NCBI GenBank assembly: GCA_046296495.1
Contig: JBKBLB010000019.1
Coordinates: forward strand, 4,312 to 68,311
Direction of reading: 5' to 3'
Length of the DNA stretch: 64,000 bases
DNA from: Bacteroidia bacterium
GTDB taxonomy: Bacteria; Bacteroidota; Bacteroidia; UKL13-3
In this document: in pieces, positions 1 to 51,912 of the stretch
How the letters are laid out: the number at the start of each line of letters is the position of its first letter
Numbering within the stretch: position 1 is the first letter of the stretch
The notes under the pieces: model-generated
The model's input: the letters and a program-made list of their open reading frames with translations, nothing else
The model's database searches: none
Told to the model about the DNA's origin: nothing
Position numbers and translations under genes: made by a program

Positions 1-371
1 CTCTCGCGCATGGACTCCAAGTCTTCAGGCGTATCGAAAGCGTAATAGGCATAGCCACTTTCAACCAATTTCATAGCATATTGCTTGTACATTTCTTTAC
101 GCTCGCTTTGGCGATAAGGGGCATGCGGACCATTGCCAAAGCCAACACCTTCGTTTGGCTCAATTCCAAGCCATTTTAACGATTCGATAATGTATTCTTC
201 GGCACCTTTAACAAAGCGCGTTTGGTCGGTATCTTCAATACGTAAAATAAAATCGCCATTGTTTTTTTTGGCAATAAGGTAGTTGTATAAAGCCGTTCTT
301 ACACCGCCAATATGCAAAGGCCCGGTAGGGCTTGGGGCAAAACGTACTCTTACTTTTCTGTTTTCGTTCAT
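1..371 (-). CDS. gltX: glutamate--tRNA ligase, N-terminal part (gene runs off the left edge)
   Basis: Absent from the ORF track because it is truncated. Reverse-strand translation from the ATG at 371-369 reads [36 protein letters not shown]..., carrying the class I aaRS HIGH motif (PLHIGG) in the typical GluRS N-terminal context. Confidence 0.85.
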
Positions 372-12687: not shown

Positions 12688-13371
12688 TTAAGCCTTTTTA
12701 AGTTTGTTTAGCCACTCCATAATGTTTATGGGCAGCAATAAACAAGTTAATGCGTAAATGGTGTCTTCAACCGGAATTGTTAATATTCTTAGTCCAATAA
12801 TTTCGTTGTTATTATACCAAACAACCGGTTCGGGGGTAACTGCACCTGTAAGCACACCGTTTACCAGCAAAAATGGAATTAAATGTATAAAATAAGCCAG
12901 CCAAAAATAGCCCATGTATGCCGGCTTTAAATAATAGTTAATAATAAGCAAAACAGCAGCAACACCACAATTTACAAGAGTGTATGTTTTATTGTTGAAC
13001 ACAATAGCTAAGATTGCCGTAATAAGAAAAAAAATGAGTGTAATTTTATGCATGCTTGAACCAAAAGGTTGTTTATTGATATAAGCCTTTAAACATGCAT
13101 ATATAAAAACACTTGCATAAGGAATTACCACAAAAAAACTCCATTCTTCTAACGGTAAATGATTGATACGATAAGGCATGGTATATATTTCACTAAAACC
13201 CCAAATGCCGGTTTTGCTAAACCAACCATCCCATAAAATAAATATTATTCCATTTACAAAAATTCCTGCAAACAAAGCAGGCCACTGTTTGTAATAGGCA
13301 ACTTTTTTATCGAAACTAAGGGCAAAAGGGCCGGCAAAGCTTCCAAGCATAAGCCATGCATACAAACTCAT
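12688..13371 (-). CDS. lycopene cyclase, fused heterodimeric type (CrtYc/CrtYd-like)
   Basis: A polytopic membrane protein with the PxE(E/D) signature in each half (LPLEEW and IPVEDT). It is the last gene of the carotenoid operon. Confidence 0.75.
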   Translation of the reverse strand: MSLYAWLMLGSFAGPFALSFDKKVAYYKQWPALFAGIFVNGIIFILWDGWFSKTGIWGFSEIYTMPYRINHLPLEEWSFFVVIPYASVFIYACLKAYINKQPFGSSMHKITLIFFLITAILAIVFNNKTYTLVNCGVAAVLLIINYYLKPAYMGYFWLAYFIHLIPFLLVNGVLTGAVTPEPVVWYNNNEIIGLRILTIPVEDTIYALTCLLLPINIMEWLNKLKKA

Positions 13372-13820
13372 TATTTTGTAAGGTTTGGATTTTTAAAATA
13401 CCTGAAGGGTACTATAAGCATACCAAAGTTTTCGCCATGTTCTTTACCTAAATGTTTATGATGAAGTTTATGTGCCCTTCTAATGGCTCTTACATAGCGA
13501 TTGTTCCAATGTGTAAATATTTTAAATCGTTGATGAATGATAATGTCGTGAACTATAAAATATGCTATTCCATAAAATGAAATACCCAAACCAATAAAAA
13601 ACCTAAAATCGTTATAAATGCTACCTGTTATAAAACAATATGCACTCGGAACGGCAAATATTAAAAAGAATGCATCGTTTTTCTCAAAAAAACCCGGTTC
13701 CACCTGATGATGGTCTTTGTGTAAATACCATAAAAAGCCATGCATTACATATTTATGGGTAAACCAAGCCATAAACTCCATAAACCAAAATGTGGTAAAT
13801 GTTATCAAAAAATTTATCAT
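13371..13820 (-). CDS. crtZ: beta-carotene hydroxylase
   Basis: His boxes HKYVMH, HKDHH, HDIIIH and HKLHHKH. The start is trimmed to ATG 13820, giving an ATGA overlap with the upstream gene. The track's 13952 start lies inside the neighbouring ORF. Confidence 0.85.
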   Translation of the reverse strand: MINFLITFTTFWFMEFMAWFTHKYVMHGFLWYLHKDHHQVEPGFFEKNDAFFLIFAVPSAYCFITGSIYNDFRFFIGLGISFYGIAYFIVHDIIIHQRFKIFTHWNNRYVRAIRRAHKLHHKHLGKEHGENFGMLIVPFRYFKNPNLTK

Positions 13821-14494
13821 ACCAGTTGACTTAAATTTATTGCAGCAAAAAACATTAATTGTATTATATAAAGCCTTAAACCCATGATATTGTTTTGCAT
13901 GATGCCGCTTTTTATCATCCAAAAACAAAAAGCAGTACCAAAACAAAACCATGCCGTAAAGTTTTGTAGCGGAATTTTATTATCCTGCCAATACCAAAAA
14001 TCAAGTTTTGGGGCAACAGGCTCAATAAAAACATCAAGTATTACCATAAATAAACCAGCAAACAAGGCTAAGGCTATTTGCGCTGCCTGTATATTTTGCA
14101 GAGGATATTTCTTTAAAACAAAATGTGCCATTTGTATGCTTGCATAACAAACCAAAATCCAGTTTAGGCCAATTATTATCGGGGTTTGCATTATCTTTAC
14201 TCCCAGAGCTTCTCCATAAGTGTAAAATCCAAAAATTCTTCCGGTAGTGGTTCCGGCCATTTCAAGCACCCATGCCGATACCCATATAAAAATCATATTT
14301 ATTATAAAATATCTGTTTACCAAAGCATGACCATAGAGCATTGAAAATACACTTAGTATAAGATTAAATGGTGTAAGTTTTGCAAACAGTTTTGGTTCAA
14401 ACACCATACCCAATAGGCCAACACCATAAAAAATAATTAGCAAAGTGGTATTTAGCTTGGTTTTATTGGTAGTTAGTTGTTTTATATTCATCAA
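13817..14494 (-). CDS. carotenoid biosynthesis membrane protein (CruF-like candidate hydratase)
   Basis: A 225-aa polytopic membrane protein, translationally coupled on both sides to carotenoid genes. The family assignment comes from memory of the 'carotenoid biosynthesis protein' family and is not verified. Confidence 0.5.
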   Translation of the reverse strand: MMNIKQLTTNKTKLNTTLLIIFYGVGLLGMVFEPKLFAKLTPFNLILSVFSMLYGHALVNRYFIINMIFIWVSAWVLEMAGTTTGRIFGFYTYGEALGVKIMQTPIIIGLNWILVCYASIQMAHFVLKKYPLQNIQAAQIALALFAGLFMVILDVFIEPVAPKLDFWYWQDNKIPLQNFTAWFCFGTAFCFWMIKSGIMQNNIMGLRLYIIQLMFFAAINLSQLV

Positions 14495-15972
14495 TAATCT
14501 TCTTTTATAAGTTGGCTTACTATTTTAGCCGAATTTAAACAAAGTGGAATACCACCTCCGGGATGTACGCTTCCTCCGCAAAAATACAAGCCTTTTATAT
14601 TGTCAGAAAAATTTTTATGCCTTAAAAATGCCGCGTACCTGTTATTGCTTGCATTTCCGTATAAAGCTCCGGCAAAACTTCCGGTTCGGCTTTCAATACT
14701 TCTTGGTTCAAGCAAATGTTCGCAAACTATTAATGGCTCTATTGGTTCGCCAAGTAAATTGCTTAGTTTATTTAAAATATTTTGCCTTGATATTTTAATT
14801 ATCTCATCCCAGTTTTGACCCGAATTGTTTGGCACATTAATCATAACAAACCAGTTTTCGCAACCTTGTGGGGCATCGCCATCAACATATTTTGAAGTAA
14901 TATTTATATATACTGTCGGGTCGGCAAAAACCTGTTTTTTATTAAAAATATAATCAAACTCTGTTTCGTAATCGGCACTAAAAAAAATGTTGTGCAAATC
15001 AAGATTATTAAACTGCTTCTTTATTCCCCAATAAAAAATTAAAGCACTCGATGATTTTTCCTGACTTATAATTTTCTCAGGTAATTGTTCATTTGGCAAT
15101 AAATTTTTGTATGTAAAGTATATATCGGCATTGCTTAAAACTGCATCAAATTCAATAAAATTATTATTTACTACTATACCAGTAATTTGCTTTTTTCCTT
15201 TTAGGTAGTTATATTTTATTTCGTTTACCTGATGTTTAAAATAAAACTTTACGCCCAAATCTTTAGCCAAATTATAAATGCTGTTTGTTATACTATACAT
15301 ACCTTTTTGCGGAATGTATGAACCAAAATAATGTTCTAAGTGAGCAATAACATGCAACAAACCGGGTGCTTTGTATGGGTTTGAACCATTGTATGTTGCA
15401 AACCTGTTAAAATACTGAACCAATTTAGGGTTATTAAATTTTTGTTTGTGTAGTTGGTTAAGTGTTTTAAAAACATGCAGTTTGTAAGCAAAAAAAATGC
15501 CTTTTAAGGTTTTAAAATTTAAGTAGTTTTTTAACTTATGCAAACTTTGCTCAATAAACAGTGGTGCAGTTAGGTTGTAATTAAATTCAGCTTGTTTTAA
15601 GAAATCAAAAAAAATATTTGGGTTATCAACATTAAGTTTTTCTTTAAGTTCGTTTGCAAAAGTTCTTTTATCGTGCCATGCTATTAAATTAGTACCATCA
15701 GCATAGTGGTAAACGCAGTTTATTTGCGTTTTTTTATAATTAAAATAATCCCTTGGATTTTTTTGAACCAATTCAAATAATTCATCAATTAAAAACGGTG
15801 TGGCAAGTAATGATGGGCCTGCATCAAACCTAAAACCATCTATATTAAATTCGCTTAGTTTACCACCCGGAAATTCATTTTTCTCGAAAACATAAACATC
15901 ATGTTTATTAGCAGCAAGCCTAACAGCACAAGCCAATCCGGCAATTCCACTTCCAACTACGGCAATTTTCAT
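14491..15972 (-). CDS. phytoene desaturase-family FAD oxidoreductase (CrtI/CrtD-like)
   Basis: KIAVVGSGIAGLACAVRL...FEKNEFPGGK dinucleotide fold and a C-terminal GGSVHPGGGIP. Its position next to a CruF-like gene favours a 3,4-desaturase (CrtD) role. Confidence 0.8.
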   Translation of the reverse strand: MKIAVVGSGIAGLACAVRLAANKHDVYVFEKNEFPGGKLSEFNIDGFRFDAGPSLLATPFLIDELFELVQKNPRDYFNYKKTQINCVYHYADGTNLIAWHDKRTFANELKEKLNVDNPNIFFDFLKQAEFNYNLTAPLFIEQSLHKLKNYLNFKTLKGIFFAYKLHVFKTLNQLHKQKFNNPKLVQYFNRFATYNGSNPYKAPGLLHVIAHLEHYFGSYIPQKGMYSITNSIYNLAKDLGVKFYFKHQVNEIKYNYLKGKKQITGIVVNNNFIEFDAVLSNADIYFTYKNLLPNEQLPEKIISQEKSSSALIFYWGIKKQFNNLDLHNIFFSADYETEFDYIFNKKQVFADPTVYINITSKYVDGDAPQGCENWFVMINVPNNSGQNWDEIIKISRQNILNKLSNLLGEPIEPLIVCEHLLEPRSIESRTGSFAGALYGNASNNRYAAFLRHKNFSDNIKGLYFCGGSVHPGGGIPLCLNSAKIVSQLIKEDY

Positions 15973-41909: not shown

Positions 41910-42189
41910 GGCACAAATGTTTGGTAAAACCTTTTTTGCAAGGTAAACCTTGTGTTATTTTATCTTTAACAAATTGCATAATAAAACATACAGTTTAACC
42001 ATATCAGTACAAATAACGATTAATTTCCATTAAAAATCAGTCAATTATTATATCGTCATTTTTTTATATAGCATTTAAAATTTAACAAAAAATTAACACA
42101 CTTTTTAAAACAATGTAAATAGACCGCAGCCCTAACATTTACTTAACACGCGGGCATTATCCTTGAACAAAATTTCAAAAAAAATCTTT

Positions 42190-45100
42190 ATGAAACTAAA
42201 AAAACAATTTATCTACTTTATTACATTTTTACTATGCCTTTTGTTGAACCAAAGTTGGGGGCAGGTTAGTATTACAACACAAGCAACTTATCAAGAATCT
42301 TTTGATGGAATGGGCACATCTGGAACTGCTACATTACCAACTGGTTTTAAATTTGGTAATAACACAACTGATTGGACAGCAGGGGCAAACACAACTGCAA
42401 CAACTTTAGCTTACGGTACAACTGGAACAGGAGCTGTTACTGGAACTTCTAGTGGTGGTGCAATTAATTGGGCCAACGGTATAACAGGTAGTTCTACTGA
42501 AAGAGCAATAGGATATTTGACAACTAGTTCATTTTCGAGCCCTAGAGACATATTTTTTGCATTTACAAATAACACAGGTAGTACAATAAGCACATTAATT
42601 ATTAGTTGGGATTATGAAAAATACAGAAGTGGCTCAAGAGCATTTGACTGGACATTTTTTCATGGAAGTACAGCATCAAGTGTTAGTACATCTGCTACTG
42701 CAGGCGACCAAAGTTACAGTGCAGATGCAGATAATAATACAATCAATAATCCACCTACTATAATTAATAAAGCTGTTCTATTAACCGGTTTAAGCATAGG
42801 AAATGGTACTACATATTACTTTAGATGGAGATATGCAGGATCAGGTGGTTCAACAAATGCACAAGGATTGGCAATAGATAATTTAACATTAACATTTCCT
42901 CAAAACATACCCTATTCACAGAATTTTGGAACTACATCTTTTACAACTTATCCAGCAGGTTTTTACGGAAGATTGCAGGATGGAAGTTCAGTAAGCAGCC
43001 AATCTGCCGCTGAAGCAACAACACCTGTTGGTGGTATGGCTTTACTTGCTGCACAATCAGGCGCTTTCGGTTCAGAACCTTCCGGTGGTTTAAGAGGATT
43101 CGCTGTTTCTTCAAACGGACAATTAGCTATTTCAACTGCTAATAGCACAACTTCTGGATTAAATCAACCATTTTTAACTATTAATACAGGTTCAAATACT
43201 TCTTTGAATATTTCTTATGATGTTGAAATATTATTTTCTGGAAGTAGAACTATGGGACATGCTTTACAATACAGAACCGGAGTTTCTGGTTCATGGACAA
43301 CAGTTAGTGCTACTGCTACTAATATTGGCTCTAGCCCAATATTAAATTCGACAACCAGCATTTCAACTTCTCTAAGTGGTCTTTCAACAAACACTAATTA
43401 TCAATTTCGCTGGATAACATGGAGGGACCATGGTTCTGGTACTACTAATACATCTATTGGTATTGATAATATTTCATTTACTGCAGGAGCTACCCCAACC
43501 ATTACCCTAAACAACAACACCCAAATTACGGCTGGCAATGTAAACCAAGGTACTACCGACCATATTCTTTCTCGCTTTAGGGTTGAAGTTGCCACTGCAA
43601 ACGCCACTTTAAACCAAATTAGCTTTACTGCAGGAGGCACTTTTATTGCCGGTGATATTACCAATTTTAAATTATATACCTCAACCACCAATACTTTTCC
43701 GGGTGGCACACCGCTTGCTACCGTTAGTGCCGGCAGCATTGCCAATGGCGGAACCGTAACTTTCAGTTCATTATCTCAAAGTTGTGCCATTGGCGACCGC
43801 TATTTTTGGATTACTGCCGATGTTTCGGCTACCGCAACTGCTTCAAACACCGTTAGTGTTCCATCGCTTGGCGCTTCTAATTTTACTTTTGCCGCAGGTA
43901 TGCCTACCGGAACCATTGATGCCGGTGGCGCTCAAACCTTTGTAGTGGTTACACCCAATATTGTTTTAAGCTCTCCGGCTGCTTCATCAGCAGATATTAC
44001 CCAAGGACAAAACAATCAGGTAATTTATCGTTTTGATTTGGCTGTTACCGTTGCCAATGCCTCACTAAACGGAGTTACCGTTACTACTGCCGGAACTTAT
44101 GCTGCTGCCGACCTTACCAATATTAAATGCTGGTACTCGGCTGATAATTCGTTTGATGCAGGTACAGATGTATTGCTTTCTACCAAAACTACCGGCTTAG
44201 GAGCGGGCTCGCAGGTGTTTCCATCATTTACTTCTCAAACCATCAATTCAGGTTCTACAGGCTTTATATTTATTACGGTTGATTTGCCTTTAACAGCCAC
44301 ATCGGGCAATACCATTTCGGTAAATGCCATAACCACAGCCGATATTTCGTTTGTAAGCGGCAGCAAATCTGGTACTGCCAACACAAGTGGCACCAAAACC
44401 ATTATAGCTTGTACACCTACCAATGTTACTGGCTTAAGTTTAACTCCCGGCAACGGTCAAATTACCGTTAGCTGGACCAACCCAAGTTGTATGGATGACG
44501 TGGTTATTGCAGTTCATACAGCATCTATTTCTGCTTCGCCAAGCGGTGTGCCTACCATTAGTTCTTTATCATACACCGATGGTGCAAACCCAACCCTAAC
44601 GGGTGGGGCGGTTTTGGTTTACAGAGGTTCTACTTCGCCTCAAACCATTACAAGTTTAACCAACGGCACAACCTATTTTGTAAAAGTATTTACCAGAAGA
44701 GGAACTGTTTACAGCTCAGGTGTTGAATCGAGTGCTACGCCATCAAACATTACCGTGGGTGATTATCGTTCAAACAAAGCAACGGGAAACTGGGGTACTG
44801 CTGCCGACTGGGATACATGGAATGGAACATCATGGGTTACTGCCTCTTCTGCACCAACATCAACAACCAATGTAACTGTACAAAATGGTCATACATACAC
44901 TATACCGGGCTCAGGCACTCTTGAGTGTAATAACCTTACGGTTGATGCTGGCGGTAAATTATTTTATAATACTACCGGTGTAAGATATATTAGTATAAAC
45001 GGAAATATTACTTGTAACGGAACAATTGGAAACGGTACCACCCTTGATGGTATCAGTTTTAATATAAATGGTGCCTCTTGTACAATTAGCGGCTCCGGAA

Positions 45101-47316
45101 GCTTTGATTGTTTAAGGTTGAGAAAAAACAGTACTACTCCCGCAACAACTAACTTAACAATTTCAATGAATGTTAACGCCAGATTTAATGGTACTGCCAT
45201 ATACAATGAAGTTGCGGCTACTTTTAATGTTACAATAGCCTCGGGAGTTACCGTAACCTGCCCGGGAGACGGTACAAGTAACTCAAGAGGAAGTGTATCT
45301 ATAGACGGAACCGAAGGTACCGGTTCAGGAGAAAGGTCAGGTACATTAACCGTAAATGGAACTTTAACTTTATCGGGTACTGGAACCGGAACTGCTACCT
45401 TGTTTGCTAAAACAAACAATTCAACCGGTGCAGTTGCCATAGTTATTGCAAGTACAGGAACCATAAACACTAATATGGTAGATTTTGGCGCAAGCAGTGC
45501 AGCCGGACATACCTTTACCATTAATAGCGGTGGCATATTAAATATAACAGGCGAACCTGCAACTTTTATCACACCTTCAAATACCAATAATACTTACAGT
45601 TTTAATGCTAACTCAAACATAAACTATTCAAGAGCGGGCGATCAAACAATTTATACATTTGGAGAAACTGTATTTTGCGGAAATATTACTTTAAGCGGTA
45701 GCGGTGTTAAAAAAGTTCCTGCCGGCAGAACTTTAAACTTTAACGGAACTCTAACAACCGGTGGATTACTTACTTTAGAATCTACCTCGTCAGGAACTGC
45801 CAGAATTGGCGCTCTAACAACAGGCACCATTACAGGCAACGTAACCATTGAGCGTTTTATTCCTTCGAGCGTGCGTGCATGGCGCTACATGGCTGCGCCT
45901 TTTACAACCGGCCCTACCGTGGCAAGCAGTTGGCAGCAACAAATACACATAACCGGAAACGGCACAGGCGGTACCAATTGCCCTTCGTTAACCCAACATA
46001 CCAATGGTTTTGATGCCAGCGTACTAAACAATCCAAGCATGATGACCTTTAATGAAACCGTTGCAACTTCAACCAACAGTTTTGTAAACGGCTACCAAAG
46101 TATTGCAAATACCAATGCAACCAATTTAACTGCCGGCACAGGCTACATAGTTTTTGTTAGGGGTGCCAGAAGCCAGGGTTGCGCTTTGCTTGACGGTACA
46201 AACCCTACACCAAGTGCAGTTACAATTAGCGCAACAGGTGCGGTTCATCAAGGAACTTTTAATTTTACCGGCATTACTTATACGGCTGCCAACGGACAAG
46301 GATGGAATTTGGTTGGAAACCCCTTCCCAAGTAATATCAATTGGGATGCAAGCGGTTGGACAAGATCCAATATTGACGGAACTGTATATTTATATGTACC
46401 TGCCACCAATACTTTTACAAGCTGGAACGGAACAACCGGTACTAACGGAGCAACCGATGGTATTATACCTTCAAGCGGTGCTTTCTTTATCAAAGCCAAT
46501 GCATCATCTCCGGCCATGTCTATTACCGAAAACGTAAAAACGGCTTCAAATCCGGGTTTAGGCTTGTTTAAAAAACACGAGTTGGATAATGCCATTGAAA
46601 TTGCTTTCAGAAACACAACCGGTGCGGTTGACGAAACAAAAATTGTGTTCAGCAAATTTTATGAAAATAAATATGGCGATGATTTTGATGGAGAAAAACT
46701 TCACAACCTGAATAACTTAAATATATACTCTATTGTAGAAGCCAACACACCAAATGCTAAAAAATGTGTATTTAACGGGCTTGAACCTATAGAACCGGGC
46801 AACTCAACCGTTATTCCGCTTGGCATTACAACTCCAGCAAATGGAAATTATATTTTAAGTATAAATGTTGAAAAAATAGCCGAAAAACATGTTGTATGGT
46901 TGGTTGACCACTATTTAAAAACCCAAACTTTGCTTACCGGTACATTAAACATTCCGGTTACCATAAACAGCGACCCTGCCAGCAAAGGCGACAGCCGCTT
47001 TGAAATTGTGGTAAAACATGAATTAAATGTATTGAGCGAACCCATTGTAAATGCCACTAACAATACAGTATTTAATGTTTATCCGAACCCGGCTGCCAAT
47101 GTATTAAACATAGCTGCAACCTATACCAGCGGCAATGCTGTAACCGTAAACATTTACGATGCATTTGGCAAAAAAGTATTGCAGCACATACTTGAACCAA
47201 AAGCAGGCAATACCGCAAACGGCAGCATGGAAATAAGCAACCTGCAGGCCGGAACCTACTTTGTTGAAGTAAGCAACGGAGAAACCAAAAACATTTTTAA
47301 AACCATTAAATACTAA
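42190..47316 (+). CDS. giant secreted protein (1708 aa) with a type-A T9SS C-terminal sorting domain
   Basis: Signal peptide MKLKKQFIYFITFLLCLLLNQSWGQ and Thr/Ser/Gly/Asn-rich beta-type sequence. The C-terminus FNVYPNPAANVLNI...GTYFVEVSNGETKNIFKTIKY is a typical T9SS CTD. Confidence 0.85.
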   Translation: MKLKKQFIYFITFLLCLLLNQSWGQVSITTQATYQESFDGMGTSGTATLPTGFKFGNNTTDWTAGANTTATTLAYGTTGTGAVTGTSSGGAINWANGITGSSTERAIGYLTTSSFSSPRDIFFAFTNNTGSTISTLIISWDYEKYRSGSRAFDWTFFHGSTASSVSTSATAGDQSYSADADNNTINNPPTIINKAVLLTGLSIGNGTTYYFRWRYAGSGGSTNAQGLAIDNLTLTFPQNIPYSQNFGTTSFTTYPAGFYGRLQDGSSVSSQSAAEATTPVGGMALLAAQSGAFGSEPSGGLRGFAVSSNGQLAISTANSTTSGLNQPFLTINTGSNTSLNISYDVEILFSGSRTMGHALQYRTGVSGSWTTVSATATNIGSSPILNSTTSISTSLSGLSTNTNYQFRWITWRDHGSGTTNTSIGIDNISFTAGATPTITLNNNTQITAGNVNQGTTDHILSRFRVEVATANATLNQISFTAGGTFIAGDITNFKLYTSTTNTFPGGTPLATVSAGSIANGGTVTFSSLSQSCAIGDRYFWITADVSATATASNTVSVPSLGASNFTFAAGMPTGTIDAGGAQTFVVVTPNIVLSSPAASSADITQGQNNQVIYRFDLAVTVANASLNGVTVTTAGTYAAADLTNIKCWYSADNSFDAGTDVLLSTKTTGLGAGSQVFPSFTSQTINSGSTGFIFITVDLPLTATSGNTISVNAITTADISFVSGSKSGTANTSGTKTIIACTPTNVTGLSLTPGNGQITVSWTNPSCMDDVVIAVHTASISASPSGVPTISSLSYTDGANPTLTGGAVLVYRGSTSPQTITSLTNGTTYFVKVFTRRGTVYSSGVESSATPSNITVGDYRSNKATGNWGTAADWDTWNGTSWVTASSAPTSTTNVTVQNGHTYTIPGSGTLECNNLTVDAGGKLFYNTTGVRYISINGNITCNGTIGNGTTLDGISFNINGASCTISGSGSFDCLRLRKNSTTPATTNLTISMNVNARFNGTAIYNEVAATFNVTIASGVTVTCPGDGTSNSRGSVSIDGTEGTGSGERSGTLTVNGTLTLSGTGTGTATLFAKTNNSTGAVAIVIASTGTINTNMVDFGASSAAGHTFTINSGGILNITGEPATFITPSNTNNTYSFNANSNINYSRAGDQTIYTFGETVFCGNITLSGSGVKKVPAGRTLNFNGTLTTGGLLTLESTSSGTARIGALTTGTITGNVTIERFIPSSVRAWRYMAAPFTTGPTVASSWQQQIHITGNGTGGTNCPSLTQHTNGFDASVLNNPSMMTFNETVATSTNSFVNGYQSIANTNATNLTAGTGYIVFVRGARSQGCALLDGTNPTPSAVTISATGAVHQGTFNFTGITYTAANGQGWNLVGNPFPSNINWDASGWTRSNIDGTVYLYVPATNTFTSWNGTTGTNGATDGIIPSSGAFFIKANASSPAMSITENVKTASNPGLGLFKKHELDNAIEIAFRNTTGAVDETKIVFSKFYENKYGDDFDGEKLHNLNNLNIYSIVEANTPNAKKCVFNGLEPIEPGNSTVIPLGITTPANGNYILSINVEKIAEKHVVWLVDHYLKTQTLLTGTLNIPVTINSDPASKGDSRFEIVVKHELNVLSEPIVNATNNTVFNVYPNPAANVLNIAATYTSGNAVTVNIYDAFGKKVLQHILEPKAGNTANGSMEISNLQAGTYFVEVSNGETKNIFKTIKY

Positions 47317-47337
47317 ATCTTCTACCCAAACAATATC

Positions 47338-47946
47338 ATGAAAAAGATAAATTTAACCATTGCTCTTGTAGCCATACTGCTAATAAATGCCAAGGCAAAC
47401 ATGGCGCAAAACCTGTCGTTTAGAGAACAATTGCTTGAAGCATTGTATGGCGATGAAAGTTATGAACCCCAACGCTATGAAGATGAGGGAAACGAAGACG
47501 GCTTTTTTAACGACATGAACCAAAGCCGCTTTGCGAGCAGTTACAAAAGCAGCTACGAGCGTACTGATTACAGAATTGAAAACAGAAGAAACTTTGATTT
47601 TAACAGAAATACTCCTTCGTCAGGATATAATTTTAACGAACAATCATTTGATTTTTCTTCACCCCGAAATTACGGCAATGGCGGTGGCGCTGCTGGTGCC
47701 GGTGGTTTTGAACCTGTAACCATAAACCCGGGCAATTCTGCCGGAACCATAAACCAAGGTGGTAGTATTGGCATTGCCCCTTTTGAGCCGCCCAAACGCA
47801 GAGATGTAACCCCCGAAAATTCTCCCGGCCTACCCGGAGACCCTGATGTACCCGTTGATGGTGGCATTGTAGCCCTGCTTGCAGCCGGTGCCGCCTACGG
47901 AGCAAAGAGAAAATTTAAAAAAAATAATAAAAATTTACATATATGA
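47338..47946 (+). CDS. secreted low-complexity protein with a P-V-D-G-G + TM + KRK C-terminal tail
   Basis: Signal peptide (..AKANMA), an N/F/Y/G/D/E/R-rich body, and C-terminus DVPVDGGIVALLAAGAAYGAKRKFKK. Lies 21 nt after the upstream gene, and its stop overlaps the next start (ATGA). Confidence 0.7.
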   Translation: MKKINLTIALVAILLINAKANMAQNLSFREQLLEALYGDESYEPQRYEDEGNEDGFFNDMNQSRFASSYKSSYERTDYRIENRRNFDFNRNTPSSGYNFNEQSFDFSSPRNYGNGGGAAGAGGFEPVTINPGNSAGTINQGGSIGIAPFEPPKRRDVTPENSPGLPGDPDVPVDGGIVALLAAGAAYGAKRKFKKNNKNLHI

Positions 47947-50528
47947 AAAAAAATAATTTAGCATTAACAATTTTAAATCTTATTGTTATATTCGGATTAG
48001 TTAACAATAAAGCAAAATGTCAAATTCTTTTTCAAGACTTTTCGTCATCAACAACTGTAAGTGATTATGTTAATTCTTCTCCAAATTCAAACCAATTTAA
48101 TTCAATTAGTACATCGGGTACTGGAACTGTTATTTCAATCAATACCGGTCAATTGAGATTTGTAAGAACTGGTAATGCCGGTTCAATAAGTAGGACGACT
48201 GATTTTACTGGAAGTCCATCATCTTTGGTTGTTAGAATGCAACTTAATGTTCCTTCTAGTTCAGGTGCTACAACTTCTGCCGCTGTTTTTCAAATTGGTT
48301 CTGGTTTTACCACAAGTAATTCAGCCGAAAGTAATGCAAATACTCATTCAAGATTTGCTATTAATATTGGATCAACCAGTGGTCAATTTTCATTAAGAGA
48401 TATTAATGCTAGCGTAAACGGCACTACAACTTTATCAACATCAACTTTAATTACTTGGGTTATAAACAACTCAGGAGCATCAATTACCTATAGGGCTCCA
48501 AACGGTAATCAGGAAACGGTAGCCGATGACACATGGGATTTATGGATAGGTACTACAAAAGAATTTAATGATAGAGGAGCTACAACTACCTCTCAAAGTT
48601 TAGCAGACTTTAAATTTGCTTTTACTAGTGGTAGTGCAACTATTGATATTGATAATATTTCTGCAGATCCTTTGTCAATTATAAATAGCTTCAGAACATC
48701 TAGTGTAAATTCTACATGGACTAACTCTTCTGATTGGGAAATTTCAAATGATGGAAGTAACTGGACTTCTTCTTCAGTTATTCCAACTGTTAATTCACAC
48801 TCAATTTTAGTTAGAAATGGTCATGTTCTAACAATCCCTGGTCAATCAACTTCGACAACTTTTTTTGTAGATGATATATCAATTGAAAGCGGTGGCACAT
48901 TGAATGTTGGCAATTTAAATGATGTTTCGGATAATAATAATAATTTGGTGTTATACGTACATAATGGTGTCTCAACAAATGATGTCAACATTGATGGTAG
49001 TTTAATTGTTAATGAAAATGCAACTATAAGAACTAGAGGAACAATTAATAATAATTCTGTTTTTAGATTAGTTTCTTCTGACAAGGGTGATGCAAGAATT
49101 GGTGATTCTAAAGACGGTACATTTTCTGGTTCAATAACCGTGCAACGCTATTTGCCATCACGCAGGGCATTCAGGTTTTTGGCAAGCCCTGTTACCACAT
49201 CAAACTTTATAAGCAACAACTGGCAACAACAAACCCATATTACCGGAACCGGTGGTGCAAGCAACGGCTTTGATGCAAGCACATTAAACAATAACTCTAT
49301 GTTTACCTTAAACGAATCCACTCAAAGCTGGACGGCTATACCCAATACCAATGCAACCAATTTACAGCAAGGTGTAGGATACAGAATTTTAATAAGAGGC
49401 GACAGAACCGTAGATTTAACAAGCAATACAGCCACACCAACCGCGGTAACCCTTTCGGCCACCGGCACACACACAACCGGAGATAAAACATACAATACTT
49501 CATCTACTCCGGCTATTTCGGGCACTACCAACAACTATACCTTTTTAGGCAATCCGTTTCCATCTTCAATAGATTGGAATGCTGTTTCGAGAACCAATGT
49601 ATCAAGCACTTATTATACCTGGAGAGCTCAAGGCGGCACAAACAATCGTGGCGCTTACGTAAACTTTAATGCTACCGGAAACGTAAGTTCTGATGGCAAT
49701 ATCAATCAATACATTGGTTCAGGCCAAGGTTTTATGATACAAACAACCGGAGCTTCACCATCCATAACAATTGAAGAAGCCGATAAGGTTTCAAACGCTC
49801 AAGGCAACCAAATTAGAGGAAAATCAAGCAATCCAAACACGCTTAGAATAAATGTTTTTGAAGATGATTCAATTTTTGCCGATGGTTTTGTAATTTATCA
49901 AAACAATAATGCCAAAGATGAATACGAAGAATACGACTCGGAAAAATGGATTAATCCGGGATTGACCATGTACTCGTTAACGGCTGATAATAAAAAAGTT
50001 TCTATTCAAGGTTTTAAAACACTTACCATTGACAGGGTTATTGAACTTGGAATAGAAAAAACCGAAAAAACCAATTATAAATTAGAGTTTACCGAATTTG
50101 ATAATTTGCTGCTTGACCCTTATTTGATTGACAGGTTTACCAATACCGAAACCGATATAAAACGCAATCCGGTTTACCGATTTAATGTAAACGAGAATGC
50201 AAATTCATCAGCCATTAACCGTTTTAGCATTGTGTTTAAAAATTCAGCTTCAACCGGTGTAAACGAAGCCATAAACAACAATCGTTTTGTGGTGTATCCA
50301 AATCCGGCTGTTGATGTTTTAAATATTCAGTCAATCAGCCAAAATGTTTCAAGCCAAATAGACTATGTGGTTTATAACCAAATAGGCGCCAACATGCAAA
50401 GCGGGAATTTGCAACTTGGCGCAAACAACCAGGCTGCCATAAACATAAACAACCTAAGCAATGGTGTGTATTTTATACAACTGCTTGATGCAAAAGGTGG
50501 CGTTCAAACAATTAAATTTATTAAATAA
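47943..50528 (+). CDS. secreted protein (861 aa) with a type-A T9SS C-terminal sorting domain, paralog of 42190-47316
   Basis: Signal peptide. Shares the central module (RFLASPVTT..NNWQQQTHITGTGG..NGFDAS) with the upstream giant. C-terminus is FVVYPNPAVDVLNI...GVYFIQLLDAKGGVQTIKFIK. Confidence 0.85.
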   Translation: MKKNNLALTILNLIVIFGLVNNKAKCQILFQDFSSSTTVSDYVNSSPNSNQFNSISTSGTGTVISINTGQLRFVRTGNAGSISRTTDFTGSPSSLVVRMQLNVPSSSGATTSAAVFQIGSGFTTSNSAESNANTHSRFAINIGSTSGQFSLRDINASVNGTTTLSTSTLITWVINNSGASITYRAPNGNQETVADDTWDLWIGTTKEFNDRGATTTSQSLADFKFAFTSGSATIDIDNISADPLSIINSFRTSSVNSTWTNSSDWEISNDGSNWTSSSVIPTVNSHSILVRNGHVLTIPGQSTSTTFFVDDISIESGGTLNVGNLNDVSDNNNNLVLYVHNGVSTNDVNIDGSLIVNENATIRTRGTINNNSVFRLVSSDKGDARIGDSKDGTFSGSITVQRYLPSRRAFRFLASPVTTSNFISNNWQQQTHITGTGGASNGFDASTLNNNSMFTLNESTQSWTAIPNTNATNLQQGVGYRILIRGDRTVDLTSNTATPTAVTLSATGTHTTGDKTYNTSSTPAISGTTNNYTFLGNPFPSSIDWNAVSRTNVSSTYYTWRAQGGTNNRGAYVNFNATGNVSSDGNINQYIGSGQGFMIQTTGASPSITIEEADKVSNAQGNQIRGKSSNPNTLRINVFEDDSIFADGFVIYQNNNAKDEYEEYDSEKWINPGLTMYSLTADNKKVSIQGFKTLTIDRVIELGIEKTEKTNYKLEFTEFDNLLLDPYLIDRFTNTETDIKRNPVYRFNVNENANSSAINRFSIVFKNSASTGVNEAINNNRFVVYPNPAVDVLNIQSISQNVSSQIDYVVYNQIGANMQSGNLQLGANNQAAININNLSNGVYFIQLLDAKGGVQTIKFIK

Positions 50529-50547
50529 CCAATAAAAAATAAATCAC

Positions 50548-50724
50548 ATGAAAAATATACTAAAAGCACTTTTAACACTGGCTGTAATTGCTCTATTATC
50601 ATACCATGCATCGGCACAACCGGGTTTTGATGATGATGTACAAGACACCCCGCTTGATGGAGGTATAGCCCTTGTTGTAGGCAGCGCTTTGGCCTACGGT
50701 GCAATGAAAAAAAGAAAAAAATAA
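50548..50724 (+). CDS. 58-aa secreted mini-protein with a P-L-D-G-G + TM + KKRKK tail (not in the ORF track)
   Basis: Hand translation gives MKNILKALLTLAVIALLSYHASAQPGFDDDVQDTPLDGGIALVVGSALAYGAMKKRKK*. It lies 19 nt after the upstream stop and is followed by a strong terminator. Its tail is 13/26 identical to that of 47338-47946. Confidence 0.6.
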   Translation: MKNILKALLTLAVIALLSYHASAQPGFDDDVQDTPLDGGIALVVGSALAYGAMKKRKK

Positions 50725-50743
50725 ACTTGTAAGTATCTCTAAT

Positions 50744-50779
50744 AAAAAAGCAGGTGAAAATATTCACCTGCTTTTTTTA
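50744..50779. terminator. bidirectional intrinsic terminator
   Basis: Perfect 9-bp stem gcaggtgaa (50750-50758) / ttcacctgc (50763-50771) with a 4-nt loop, an A-run before and a T7 run after. It lies between the convergent mini-ORF (+) and the oxidoreductase (-). Confidence 0.85.
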
Positions 50780-50781
50780 TG

Positions 50782-51912
50782 CTAAATACTCATTAATGCA
50801 ACCACATCTTTTGCAATTTTGCTTCCAAGGGCAACTCCCATGCCGTTTAGCCTTGCACCAACAACAATATTGGTTTCAACCAATTTAACAACTGGCAGTT
50901 TATTTTTCCCAAAAGCCATTATGCCACTCCATTTGTGCTCTATTATAAATGCTGTATCGGGAATAATTATCTCTTTAAGGTAATAAACTAATTTATCAAT
51001 AATTTTTTGGTTTAAACCAAATTCGGTTGTGGTTTCAGTCTCAAAATCGAGGTTGCGGCCACCACCAAAAATAATGCGGTTTTCGAAATCGCGGAAGTAA
51101 TAAAAACCTTCATCAAAATTAAATGTTCCTTTAAACTTTAAGTTGGGTATTGGCGTTGTGCAAATTACTTGCCCTCTGCCGGGAGTTATATCATCTAAAT
51201 TTAGCAAATTACCGGTAAATGCATTGGTACAAACAGCCAATTTGTTGCAAGTAAAATTATATTCGGTTTGGTTTGATGTAGCCATTACCTTAACAACATT
51301 ACTATTGCTTTCAATATGGTTTACAATAGCTCCTGTTGTAATGTGAATGCCTAAACTGTAACAATAATTAATCAGGTTTTTCATCATTTTACCGGTATCA
51401 ATCTGTCCTTCAAAATCGTTGCATATAATGGTATCAACCATGTTTTTGTTGAAACCGAATTGCTCTACCAGTTTTTTATTTTCGGAGAAAATATTTTTAT
51501 TCAGTAAAGGAAAAAGCAATTCATTCATTTCATCAAGTTTATCAAGATGATGCTTTACATTGTTTTTTAAAATCATTTCAAAACCGCCATTGTTTTGGTA
51601 GTCTATATTGTCATCGCCTAAACGATTTCGCAGCAATTGCAAACCCGTTATTCTGTTATTTATTAATTGCAGCAATGCATCTTTTCCCATAAGTCCCAAA
51701 TCGTAAACCTTTTCGCTAAGGGTTCCAATACATGCAAAACCGGCATTTTTGGTACTTGCTCCTGTAGGAAGTAAGCCTCTTTCCAAAACCATTACAGTAG
51801 CTTTAGGTTTTTGCTCTTTTATTTCACAAGCAGTACTAAGGCCTGTAATACCTGCTCCTACAACAATAAAATCGTAGTGCAAAAACTCTTTCTTATCCCA
51901 AAACGATAACAT
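50782..51912 (-). CDS. FAD-dependent oxidoreductase (DAO/glycine oxidase-like family)
   Basis: YDFIVVGAGITGLS dinucleotide fold. 376 aa. Confidence 0.75.
   Translation of the reverse strand: MLSFWDKKEFLHYDFIVVGAGITGLSTACEIKEQKPKATVMVLERGLLPTGASTKNAGFACIGTLSEKVYDLGLMGKDALLQLINNRITGLQLLRNRLGDDNIDYQNNGGFEMILKNNVKHHLDKLDEMNELLFPLLNKNIFSENKKLVEQFGFNKNMVDTIICNDFEGQIDTGKMMKNLINYCYSLGIHITTGAIVNHIESNSNVVKVMATSNQTEYNFTCNKLAVCTNAFTGNLLNLDDITPGRGQVICTTPIPNLKFKGTFNFDEGFYYFRDFENRIIFGGGRNLDFETETTTEFGLNQKIIDKLVYYLKEIIIPDTAFIIEHKWSGIMAFGKNKLPVVKLVETNIVVGARLNGMGVALGSKIAKDVVALMSI

Follow-up and report, generated by a model that had tools for sequence, protein, structure and literature searches.

Positions 42190-50777 of the 64,000-nt stretch of Bacteroidia DNA analysed here (contig JBKBLB010000019.1, hereafter the window) hold an operon of four co-directional open reading frames (ORFs) of 1708, 202, 861 and 58 aa, with intergenic gaps of 21, -4 and 19 nt, referred to below as big1, small1, big2 and small2 (Table 1). 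The two large products end in a type IX secretion system (T9SS) C-terminal domain (CTD), and the two small ones, which we call mini-proteins or minis, end in a sorting signal of exosortase type known as PID-CTERM. We consider it probable that the region consists of two tandem copies of a conserved Bacteroidota cassette, in which an exosortase-substrate peptide acts together with one family of T9SS cargo proteins. A first-pass annotation, made from the letters alone, had already read the four-gene layout with its 21-nt gap, ATGA overlap and 19-nt gap, and the ORFs and their coordinates were confirmed.

All four products have putative signal peptides, with recognisable n-, h- and c-regions in big1 and big2 and Gln at the predicted +1 position as read by eye, the latter being the 'Q-rule' of Bacteroidota (PMC5837995). 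Both large proteins exceed the curated cut-offs of the type A CTD models TIGR04183 (39.6 bits for big1 and 33.3 bits for big2, cut-off 23) and PF18962 (50.8 and 40.4 bits, cut-off 27), in line with the T9SS domains assigned to them initially. Type A was the only class of CTD model above its cut-off on either protein, with the type C model NF033708 reaching 12.8 bits on big2 (cut-off 40). In an AlphaFold2 (AF2) model of big2, which is all-beta and multi-domain with a mean predicted local distance difference test score (pLDDT) of 77.6, the CTD part superposes on the CTDs of RemA (8gl6_D, template modelling (TM) score 0.68) and NucA (8glk_D, TM-score 0.76), and therefore adopts the Ig-like beta-sandwich fold of T9SS substrate CTDs.

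The resemblance between the large proteins extends well beyond this domain. Big1 and big2 are 31% identical over 559 aa, corresponding to their last ~550 aa, which comprise the CTD and a preceding segment of ~450 aa that we refer to as the module. The same C-terminal ~550 aa are homologous in all T9SS proteins adjoining PID minis, and the N-terminal parts differ; in big1 the N-terminal part contains a match to PF14873 (32.2 bits). Hallmark motifs of the module are VERYIPxxKRAFRLLSxPVTT, NNWQQxTHITG and GFDAT, and the big1 module shares 46-58% identity with the proteins upstream of small1 homologues. Among the precomputed Pfam matches of at least 202 module homologues, which cover the CTD and assorted N-terminal domains, there is no model for the module itself. 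A Foldseek search against the PDB gave no whole-module structural match and, CTD aside, returned generic beta-sandwiches (query TM-score <=0.16).

In both small proteins a D-x-P-[VL]-D-G-G-I motif, a hydrophobic stretch ending in 'AYGA' and a Lys/Arg cluster can be read by eye. The NCBIfam model PID_CTERM (NF046080) matches small1 with 37.3 bits against a cut-off of 26, a precomputed PF28310 match also being present, and small2 with 24.3 bits (E = 2e-5), 1.7 bits below the cut-off. This is the sole NCBIfam match of either protein at E <= 1, and the PEP-CTERM (TIGR02595) and GlyGly-CTERM (TIGR03501) models gave no match on small1 or small2 at that threshold. A custom PID hidden Markov model (HMM), trained on 120 short proteins from the database of which almost all have PF28310, recognises small2 with 51 bits (E = 4e-14). 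The tail is an already curated, computationally defined sorting signal (NF046080; PF28310 in newer Pfam). The first-pass annotation had rightly described an exosortase-type tripartite tail and had named PID-CTERM, PEP-CTERM and GlyGly-CTERM as models that might recognise it; only the first of these did, and the accompanying view of a signal without a known family has to be given up, as both NCBIfam and Pfam model it.

Searched against 5.8e9 proteins, the tail profile gave 205 matches, of which the 120 listed are all 42-70 aa long and nearly all carry PF28310. In these listed proteins a signal peptide leads into ~10-15 acidic residues, for which QPGFDDDVQDTP, also found in small2, is frequent; then come P-[ILV]-D-G-G, a helix rich in Gly/Ala with A-Y-G at its end, and lastly Lys/Arg residues. 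As this is the layout of small2, whose mature part is nearly identical to many PF28310 proteins (e.g. P0008 and P0010), small2 represents the typical form. A typical mini has essentially no cargo before its sorting signal, comprising only signal peptide, ~12 acidic residues and tail, and the initial picture of the small proteins as cargo bearing a tail does not apply to it. Small1 is a rare extended version with a ~140-aa low-complexity disordered insert: its AF2 model contains only the signal-peptide helix and a transmembrane helix (173-198), with residues 69-148 at pLDDT < 50, and it has four homologues in 5.8e9 sequences, all with PF28310 and all directly 3' of a big1-like protein. Minis of intermediate length (83-152 aa) exist in other loci. 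A small1 homologue with 42% identity (P0004, in L002:1-10400) follows a module protein of >3253 aa on a contig that shares sequencing run SRR31360857 with an assembly of the window DNA, and therefore the same community, and possibly the same genome, holds further cassettes.

It might be objected that the small ORFs, and the 58-aa one especially, are unexpressed chance ORFs, given that small2 is short, lay outside the gene list on which the initial reading was based and narrowly misses the NCBIfam cut-off. We attach next to no credence to this. The same architecture occurs in >200 database proteins, the position behind module genes is kept in 59 loci (see below), and gene callers pick up small2 on independent assemblies, one of them a separate assembly of the window DNA. 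Further to that, dN/dS among Flavobacterium minis is 0.10-0.19, and the minis are therefore under purifying selection and are real genes.

Table 1. Features of the operon and its borders (coordinates are window positions)
Feature	Residues	Nucleotides	Strand	Remarks
AT-rich intergenic leader, 5' of big1		41910..42189	+	presumed promoter region
big1, 1708 aa		42190..47316	+	ORF from ATG; upstream TTG 42163 is a possible alternative start
big1 signal peptide	1-24		+	Gln at +1, read by eye
big1 N-terminal passenger, variable			+	contains BNR_assoc_N-like domain
big1 conserved pre-CTD module	~1161-1629	45670-47076	+	module HMM match
big1 T9SS type A CTD	1630-1707	47077-47310	+	TIGR04183, PF18962
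small1, 202 aa		47338..47946	+	ORF, 21 nt after big1
small1 signal peptide	1-23		+	read by eye
small1 middle			+	disordered Asn/Gly/Ser/Phe-rich region, then conserved block EPPKRRDVTPENSPGLPGDPD
small1 PID-CTERM	171-196	47848-47925	+	P-V-D-G-G, transmembrane helix, KRKFKK
big2, 861 aa		47943..50528	+	ORF; ATGA, start overlaps small1 stop
big2 signal peptide	1-26		+	Gln at +1, read by eye; N-terminal passenger after
big2 conserved pre-CTD module	340-783	48960-50291	+	homology to big1 module
big2 T9SS type A CTD	784-861	50292-50525	+	TIGR04183, PF18962
small2, 58 aa		50548..50724	+	ORF, 19 nt after big2
small2 signal peptide	1-23		+	read by eye; followed by mature N-terminus QPGFDDDVQDT
small2 PID-CTERM	34-58	50647-50721	+	P-L-D-G-G, transmembrane helix, KKRKK
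Bidirectional intrinsic terminator hairpin		50744..50777	.	15-bp stem (A-U pairs included), 4-nt loop, A-tract 5', T-tract 3'

Conservation of the cargo and mini pair

Scanning one genome per GTDB species confirmed 469 module loci; 78 of these were retained for analysis, with 69 assessable module genes. Module and mini genes were assigned with HMMs; the mini-ORFs encode, in this order, signal peptide, acidic motif, either P-[ILV]-D-G-G or P-I-[DN]-x-Y, transmembrane helix and Lys/Arg tail. The hosts of the 78 loci are Flavobacterium, Algibacter, Hyunsoonleella, Mariniflexile, Psychroflexus, Winogradskyella, Polaribacter and Nonlabens, as well as Chitinophagaceae, Flavipsychrobacter and unclassified Bacteroidia. 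Directly 3' of the module gene, a same-strand mini-ORF was present in 59/69 cases, at a median gap of 13 nt (range -38 to +202, n=73). Viewed from the other side, 81 of the 83 minis in all DNA collected at that point stand directly after a module gene, the exceptions being one mini divergent from the module gene and one second mini in tandem. A reverse test started from 10 PID proteins that were picked for long contigs only, their context not being known beforehand: six lie directly 3' of a module protein, three are divergent neighbours of one, and the tenth comes after a secreted protein of 853 aa whose similarity is only weak, which brings the number adjoined by a module-HMM-positive protein to 9 of the 10.

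Cargo and mini genes have remained adjacent in Flavobacteriia, Chitinophagia and other Bacteroidia, even though identity between modules is 23-35% and the flanking genes have turned over completely. Since the pair recurs in >80 independent loci, its occurrence is not due to chance. Cassettes occur elsewhere singly or, as in the window, in tandem (seven other loci), and small1-type minis have been seen only behind big1-type modules. This agrees well with the initial proposal that the alternation of big and small genes reflects a duplicated two-gene cassette, big1 and big2 being paralogous over their last ~550 aa, and that the neighbourhood might be conserved in relatives. Linkage to T9SS cargo, also proposed at that stage, is real, but it concerns one family defined by the pre-CTD module and not T9SS cargo in general. 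PID-CTERM is accordingly not a well-characterised sorting family with a known enzyme and no tie to the T9SS; it has been curated in silico only, and its T9SS linkage is strong.

It is conceivable that the T9SS protein and the mini, together with its exosortase, are unrelated in function and share only a promoter or a mobile cassette; the mini might then, for example, give rise to an acidic peptide that is secreted or linked to lipid. Such independence would be in keeping with the 10/69 module genes without a mini, at which remnants were looked for and none found, with a lineage that transcribes the pair divergently (L012, L124, L128), and with the stand-alone operons of mini and exosortase described below. 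However, the two genes have stayed together across classes despite the low module identity and the turnover of their surroundings, they duplicate as a unit, the small1-type minis co-occur only with big1-type modules, and even the divergent arrangement leaves them adjacent. We regard unrelated functions as improbable.

A number of individual loci deserve mention. In three of the loci without a mini (L050, L072, L073), a conserved secreted protein of ~195-220 aa ('...AQRIAMVDIAGHRDSFIE...') is encoded ~170-250 nt 3' of the module gene. In the divergent lineage (L012, L124, L125, L128, L129), the mini (DDPGLPGDDPDVPLDGG) lies 90-190 nt from the module gene, which includes Laminin_G_3, and the two are always found beside a resistance-nodulation-division (RND) efflux operon; L124 and L128 also contain a PorP/SprF gene and an upstream giant CHU_C protein with a type B CTD. 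Many Flavobacterium-type cassettes have a recurrent third gene 3' of the mini, whose product is a secreted protein that starts 'MKK...AQSVGIN-DGS-A--SA-LD' and has a FISUMP domain (TIGR02145, 98.9 bits in L040:4088-4966); it was also seen in L030, L039, L043, L046, L051, L052 and L065. Three contigs from GTDB records labelled Nostoc sp. XA013 (L023), Erythrobacter sanguineus metagenome-assembled genome (MAG; L030) and Rhizobium sp. MAG (L075) carry cassettes typical of Bacteroidota, and probably represent bin or assembly contamination.

Tail flavours and neighbouring exosortases

The 76 non-redundant minis, with a median length of 71 aa, include 32 with P-[ILV]-D-G-G (the DGG flavour, to which both window minis belong), 31 with P-[ILV]-[DN]-[DN]-aromatic (e.g. 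APINDY, PIDNY), which is typical of Flavobacterium, and 13 other variants. The one Flavobacterium-type mini tested (from L018) is matched by no NCBIfam model; judged by position and layout, this flavour is nevertheless clearly homologous to the DGG minis.

At 10/78 genome loci the last mini is followed by a ~200-aa polytopic protein and then by a ~130-aa membrane protein. Eight of the polytopic proteins were scored. They reach 49-60 bits with the exosortase/archaeosortase signature TIGR04178 (cut-off 23), their best model is Exosortase X (XrtX, NF046081; 100-129 bits, cut-off 170) and their second-best is XrtF (TIGR04128; 59-86 bits, cut-off 90). C109, R150 and H169 are invariant in the alignment of mini-adjacent exosortases (A4). 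As the scores fall below the cut-offs of both XrtX and XrtF, the mini-adjacent exosortases belong to neither curated family and, as far as sequence comparison can tell, form a separate subfamily beside them, whose members would work like those enzymes. The consecutive accession numbers suggest that XrtX is the curated partner of PID-CTERM, XrtY (NF046083) being the neighbouring model. No NCBIfam model matches the ~130-aa partner proteins.

A metagenome scan anchored on these exosortases added 33 loci. A mini lies directly upstream in 20 of them, preceded in turn by a module gene in 13 and without a module gene in 7; most of the other 13 have too little upstream DNA to judge, and the L117/L118 lineage has ample DNA upstream of the exosortase and clearly no mini. 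All exosortase-adjacent minis, 30/30 when the 10 genome and 20 metagenome loci are combined, are of the DGG type. In L096-L100, L102 and L103 (e.g. L098:6721-7946) a PID mini, the exosortase and the ~130-aa membrane partner form a stand-alone operon, in which the minis are 83-91 aa long with charged low-complexity inserts such as DRRSDDRRSDDRRSDD. The mini can therefore function without an adjacent cargo gene.

Within-genome comparison of tails gave two different pictures. In Mariniflexile and Algibacter the DGG tails are near-identical within a genome while the preceding segments differ, as would be expected if a single enzyme served many substrates. Flavobacterium-type cassettes of the same genome have tails that vary, which fits a cargo-specific function better than recognition by one enzyme.

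An exosortase is not the only enzyme that might act on such a tail. A rhombosortase or other rhomboid could cut it, in the manner of GlyGly-CTERM, at D-G-G or within the small-residue transmembrane helix. With G-G opening a Gly/Ala-rich helix, the tail does resemble GlyGly-CTERM, and rhombosortase-processed proteins are later exported by a dedicated type II secretion system (T2SS) (PMC7468200). At the same time, the small proteins match PID_CTERM and neither of the other two signal models, the enzyme adjoining minis in relatives is an exosortase, and no rhomboid was found among the membrane ORFs of the window, making rhomboid processing very improbable. A search of the 64-kb window, in which all multi-transmembrane ORFs were compared with NCBIfam and Pfam and all ORFs >=30 aa with a custom exosortase HMM, found no exosortase, rhomboid or related gene.

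It may also be that the mini is not cut at all. As an uncleaved single-pass inner-membrane protein it could hold or guide the cargo module with its acidic periplasmic tip until the T9SS engages the CTD, the PID motif being a binding or structural element and the mini an accessory dedicated to its cargo, in the way that SprF serves SprB. There is one tightly coupled mini per cargo gene, the window is without an exosortase, and the acidic segment before the PID motif is conserved (FDDDVQDVP-like), unlike the region before PEP-CTERM signals; in Flavobacterium, moreover, different cargo subfamilies within a single genome have different transmembrane segments. Both this cargo-linked variation of the tail and the conservation of the acidic segment favour a role beyond mere enzyme recognition. 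Against an escort of this kind, the minis adjoining exosortases share this exact tail type without exception, the operon of mini, exosortase and partner gene exists without a cargo gene, and the sequence of motif, transmembrane helix and basic cluster is a sortase-type hallmark, as which curators model the PID tail. An unprocessed escort is, in our judgement, unlikely, though it is the alternative that we take most seriously.

Operon boundaries and the rest of the window

The 280-nt leader (GC 25.7% vs 34.2% for the whole window) is as AT-rich as had been noted at the outset. It contains no exact match to the Bacteroidota -7 motif TAnnTTTG, and sigma-70-like matches are no more frequent in it than in shuffled sequence. 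At the other end, the hairpin closes both the operon and the convergent gene 50782-51912(-). It folds with -19.8 kcal/mol (z = -7.5; 0/200 shuffles fold equally well), and a scan for consensus terminators overlooks it, its T-run being absorbed into the stem. Among 46-nt segments taken in sliding steps over the whole window it ranks second in stability, <=0.2 kcal/mol from the best; the first-pass annotation was thus right about a strong hairpin, which is joint-strongest and not the strongest in the window.

Big1 and small1 share a reading frame, with one TAA and 7 codons between them (47314-47340). Stop-codon read-through joining cargo and mini was considered and rejected: frame offsets over 74 cassette pairs are 22/19/33, without a signal, and the shared frame therefore looks like chance. 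Elsewhere in the window, a carotenoid cluster (12688-15972, minus strand) encodes a lycopene cyclase domain protein, a fatty-acid-hydroxylase-family protein, a CruF-like hydratase and CrtD, the 1-hydroxycarotenoid 3,4-desaturase (603 bits).

Proposed function and relation to known systems

We suggest the following sequence of events for the cassette. The first gene encodes a protein composed of a variable passenger, the ~450-aa all-beta module and a type A CTD; this surface protein would be Sec-exported and then carried across the outer membrane by the T9SS. After Sec export and cleavage by signal peptidase I (Gln at +1), the mini would become a type I inner-membrane peptide with its N-terminus out and its C-terminus in. 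An exosortase encoded elsewhere in the genome would then recognise the PID motif, transmembrane helix and basic tail and remove the anchor, cutting near the PID motif and transferring the short acidic peptide to an acceptor; in the case of small1 a disordered polypeptide of ~150 aa would be transferred. Finally, the processed mini and the module of its cognate T9SS protein would work together, one-to-one, in attachment at the surface or in assembly there. The cleavage and transfer steps are proposed by analogy with the established behaviour of the exosortase, archaeosortase and rhombosortase families (PMC7468200), and the cargo-partner step because of one-to-one co-inheritance and the published genetics of F. 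johnsoniae. The joint action of the mini product and the cargo module is the weakest step. Taken together, the gene arrangement suggests that two separate protein-sorting machineries act on one surface structure.

Several observations weigh against this account. Some module genes, 10 of 69, stand without a mini or any remnant found; the mini-adjacent exosortases score below the cut-offs of XrtX and XrtF; mini and exosortase occur without a module gene; the tails of Flavobacterium-type cassettes vary within a genome; and no exosortase, rhomboid or related gene is found in the window. Further to that, a pyroglutamate N-terminus, as expected from the Q-rule (PMC5837995), would exclude the alpha-amine of the peptide as an acceptor for PorU. 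We nevertheless favour the cassette as a joint exosortase and T9SS unit.

Exosortases have been known since 2006. To our knowledge, their Bacteroidota branch has no established substrate. For XrtF in particular, the substrates were still described as unknown in 2024 (10.1101/2024.12.02.626408). In F. johnsoniae, deletion of xrtF or of its partner gene Fjoh_1449 gives a phenotype row equal to that of deletions of porU and porZ, which encode T9SS attachment components (PMC10936215). The same row as for xrtF, Fjoh_1449, porU and porZ was reported for deletion of Fjoh_0651, a tiny hypothetical gene whose complementing fragment measures 434 bp, promoter included (PMC10936215). Fjoh_0651 could be a mini-protein of the cassette type; the published primer sequences for it have no match in the collected cassette loci.

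A bolder version of the proposal, which we put forward tentatively and consider possible but not probable, is that PID-type minis of both flavours are the natural substrates of XrtX/XrtF-clade exosortases, and that each processed mini is consumed one-to-one in anchoring or maturing one type A cargo. If this were true, a sortase system of the inner membrane would converge with T9SS/PorU of the outer membrane on a two-polypeptide surface structure, and it would be explained why F. johnsoniae xrtF mutants resemble porU and porZ mutants.

The components of the cassette are of kinds already known: a T9SS type A cargo, a PID-CTERM signal and an exosortase. In the literature searched we found no paper using the term 'PID-CTERM' and no description of the cargo/mini pairing, including among the listed matches that name both exosortase and T9SS; nor did we find a description of a near cargo-less exosortase substrate dedicated to one T9SS family, of the pre-CTD module or of the second tail flavour. 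It is possible that the neighbourhood has already caught the eye of database curators and been left unpublished. The cassette yields genetically testable candidates for Bacteroidota exosortase substrates, including in tractable Flavobacterium species, and bears on how T9SS type A cargo stays on the surface outside Porphyromonas and Tannerella. It also exposes gaps in annotation, namely a ~450-aa pre-CTD module without a Pfam model, a tail flavour missed by sorting-signal models, and mini genes of 55-80 aa that are easily skipped by gene callers and readers alike.

Among known systems, the closest is the PID-CTERM family itself (NF046080/PF28310), whose motif, transmembrane helix and basic cluster are shared by both small proteins, small1 being above the cut-off. 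This family is known from database models alone, and the exosortases of relatives match XrtX best, though below its cut-off. The PEP-CTERM/EpsH (XrtA) system is similar in its combination of a signal peptide with a C-terminal tripartite tail and a polytopic Cys/Arg/His enzyme, and in having one enzyme with many substrates per genome, many of them of low complexity. Unlike in PEP-CTERM, the cassette motif is P-[ILV]-D-G-G and not P-E-P, there is no TIGR02595 match, and the substrates, mostly 55-80 aa long, are paired one-to-one with T9SS cargo genes and not with exopolysaccharide (EPS) loci. As in XrtF/Fjoh_1449 of F. johnsoniae, a Bacteroidota exosortase gene is followed by a small membrane partner gene, here of ~130 aa; Flavobacterium-type minis (P-I-N-D-Y and similar) do not stand beside xrtF in the loci seen.

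The arrangement of a giant T9SS surface protein followed by a small cargo-specific accessory gene, with several pairs per genome, is reminiscent of SprB/SprF. The cassette cargo, however, has a type A CTD (TIGR04183), its partner is a single-transmembrane peptide of 58-200 aa with a tail of sortase type, and the genes downstream of big1 and big2 have no PorP_SprF match; with this CTD and a partner that is not PorP-like, the cassette does not belong to the SprB/SprF type. PorU/PorZ of Porphyromonas gingivalis acts on the same class of CTD as that of the cassette cargo. There, the type A CTD is removed and the cargo is covalently anchored to anionic lipopolysaccharide (A-LPS), a carrier presenting an amino-acid-modified sugar (PMC7468200). 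No peptide carrier is known in that system, and that a processed mini serves as an anchor in attachment of the PorU/PorZ type is speculation on our part.

Lastly, GlyGly-CTERM/rhombosortase as coupled to the T2SS, exemplified by VesB of Vibrio cholerae, likewise ties the processing of an inner-membrane C-terminal anchor to secretion and surface attachment (PMC7468200). VesB carries both signals on one polypeptide and is handled by a rhomboid, whereas the cassette splits the secretion and sortase signals over two polypeptides and its relatives have an exosortase. Although it fails the signal models of PEP-CTERM/exosortase and of GlyGly-CTERM/rhombosortase, the cassette, by analogy, probably resembles both of these systems in its chemistry.

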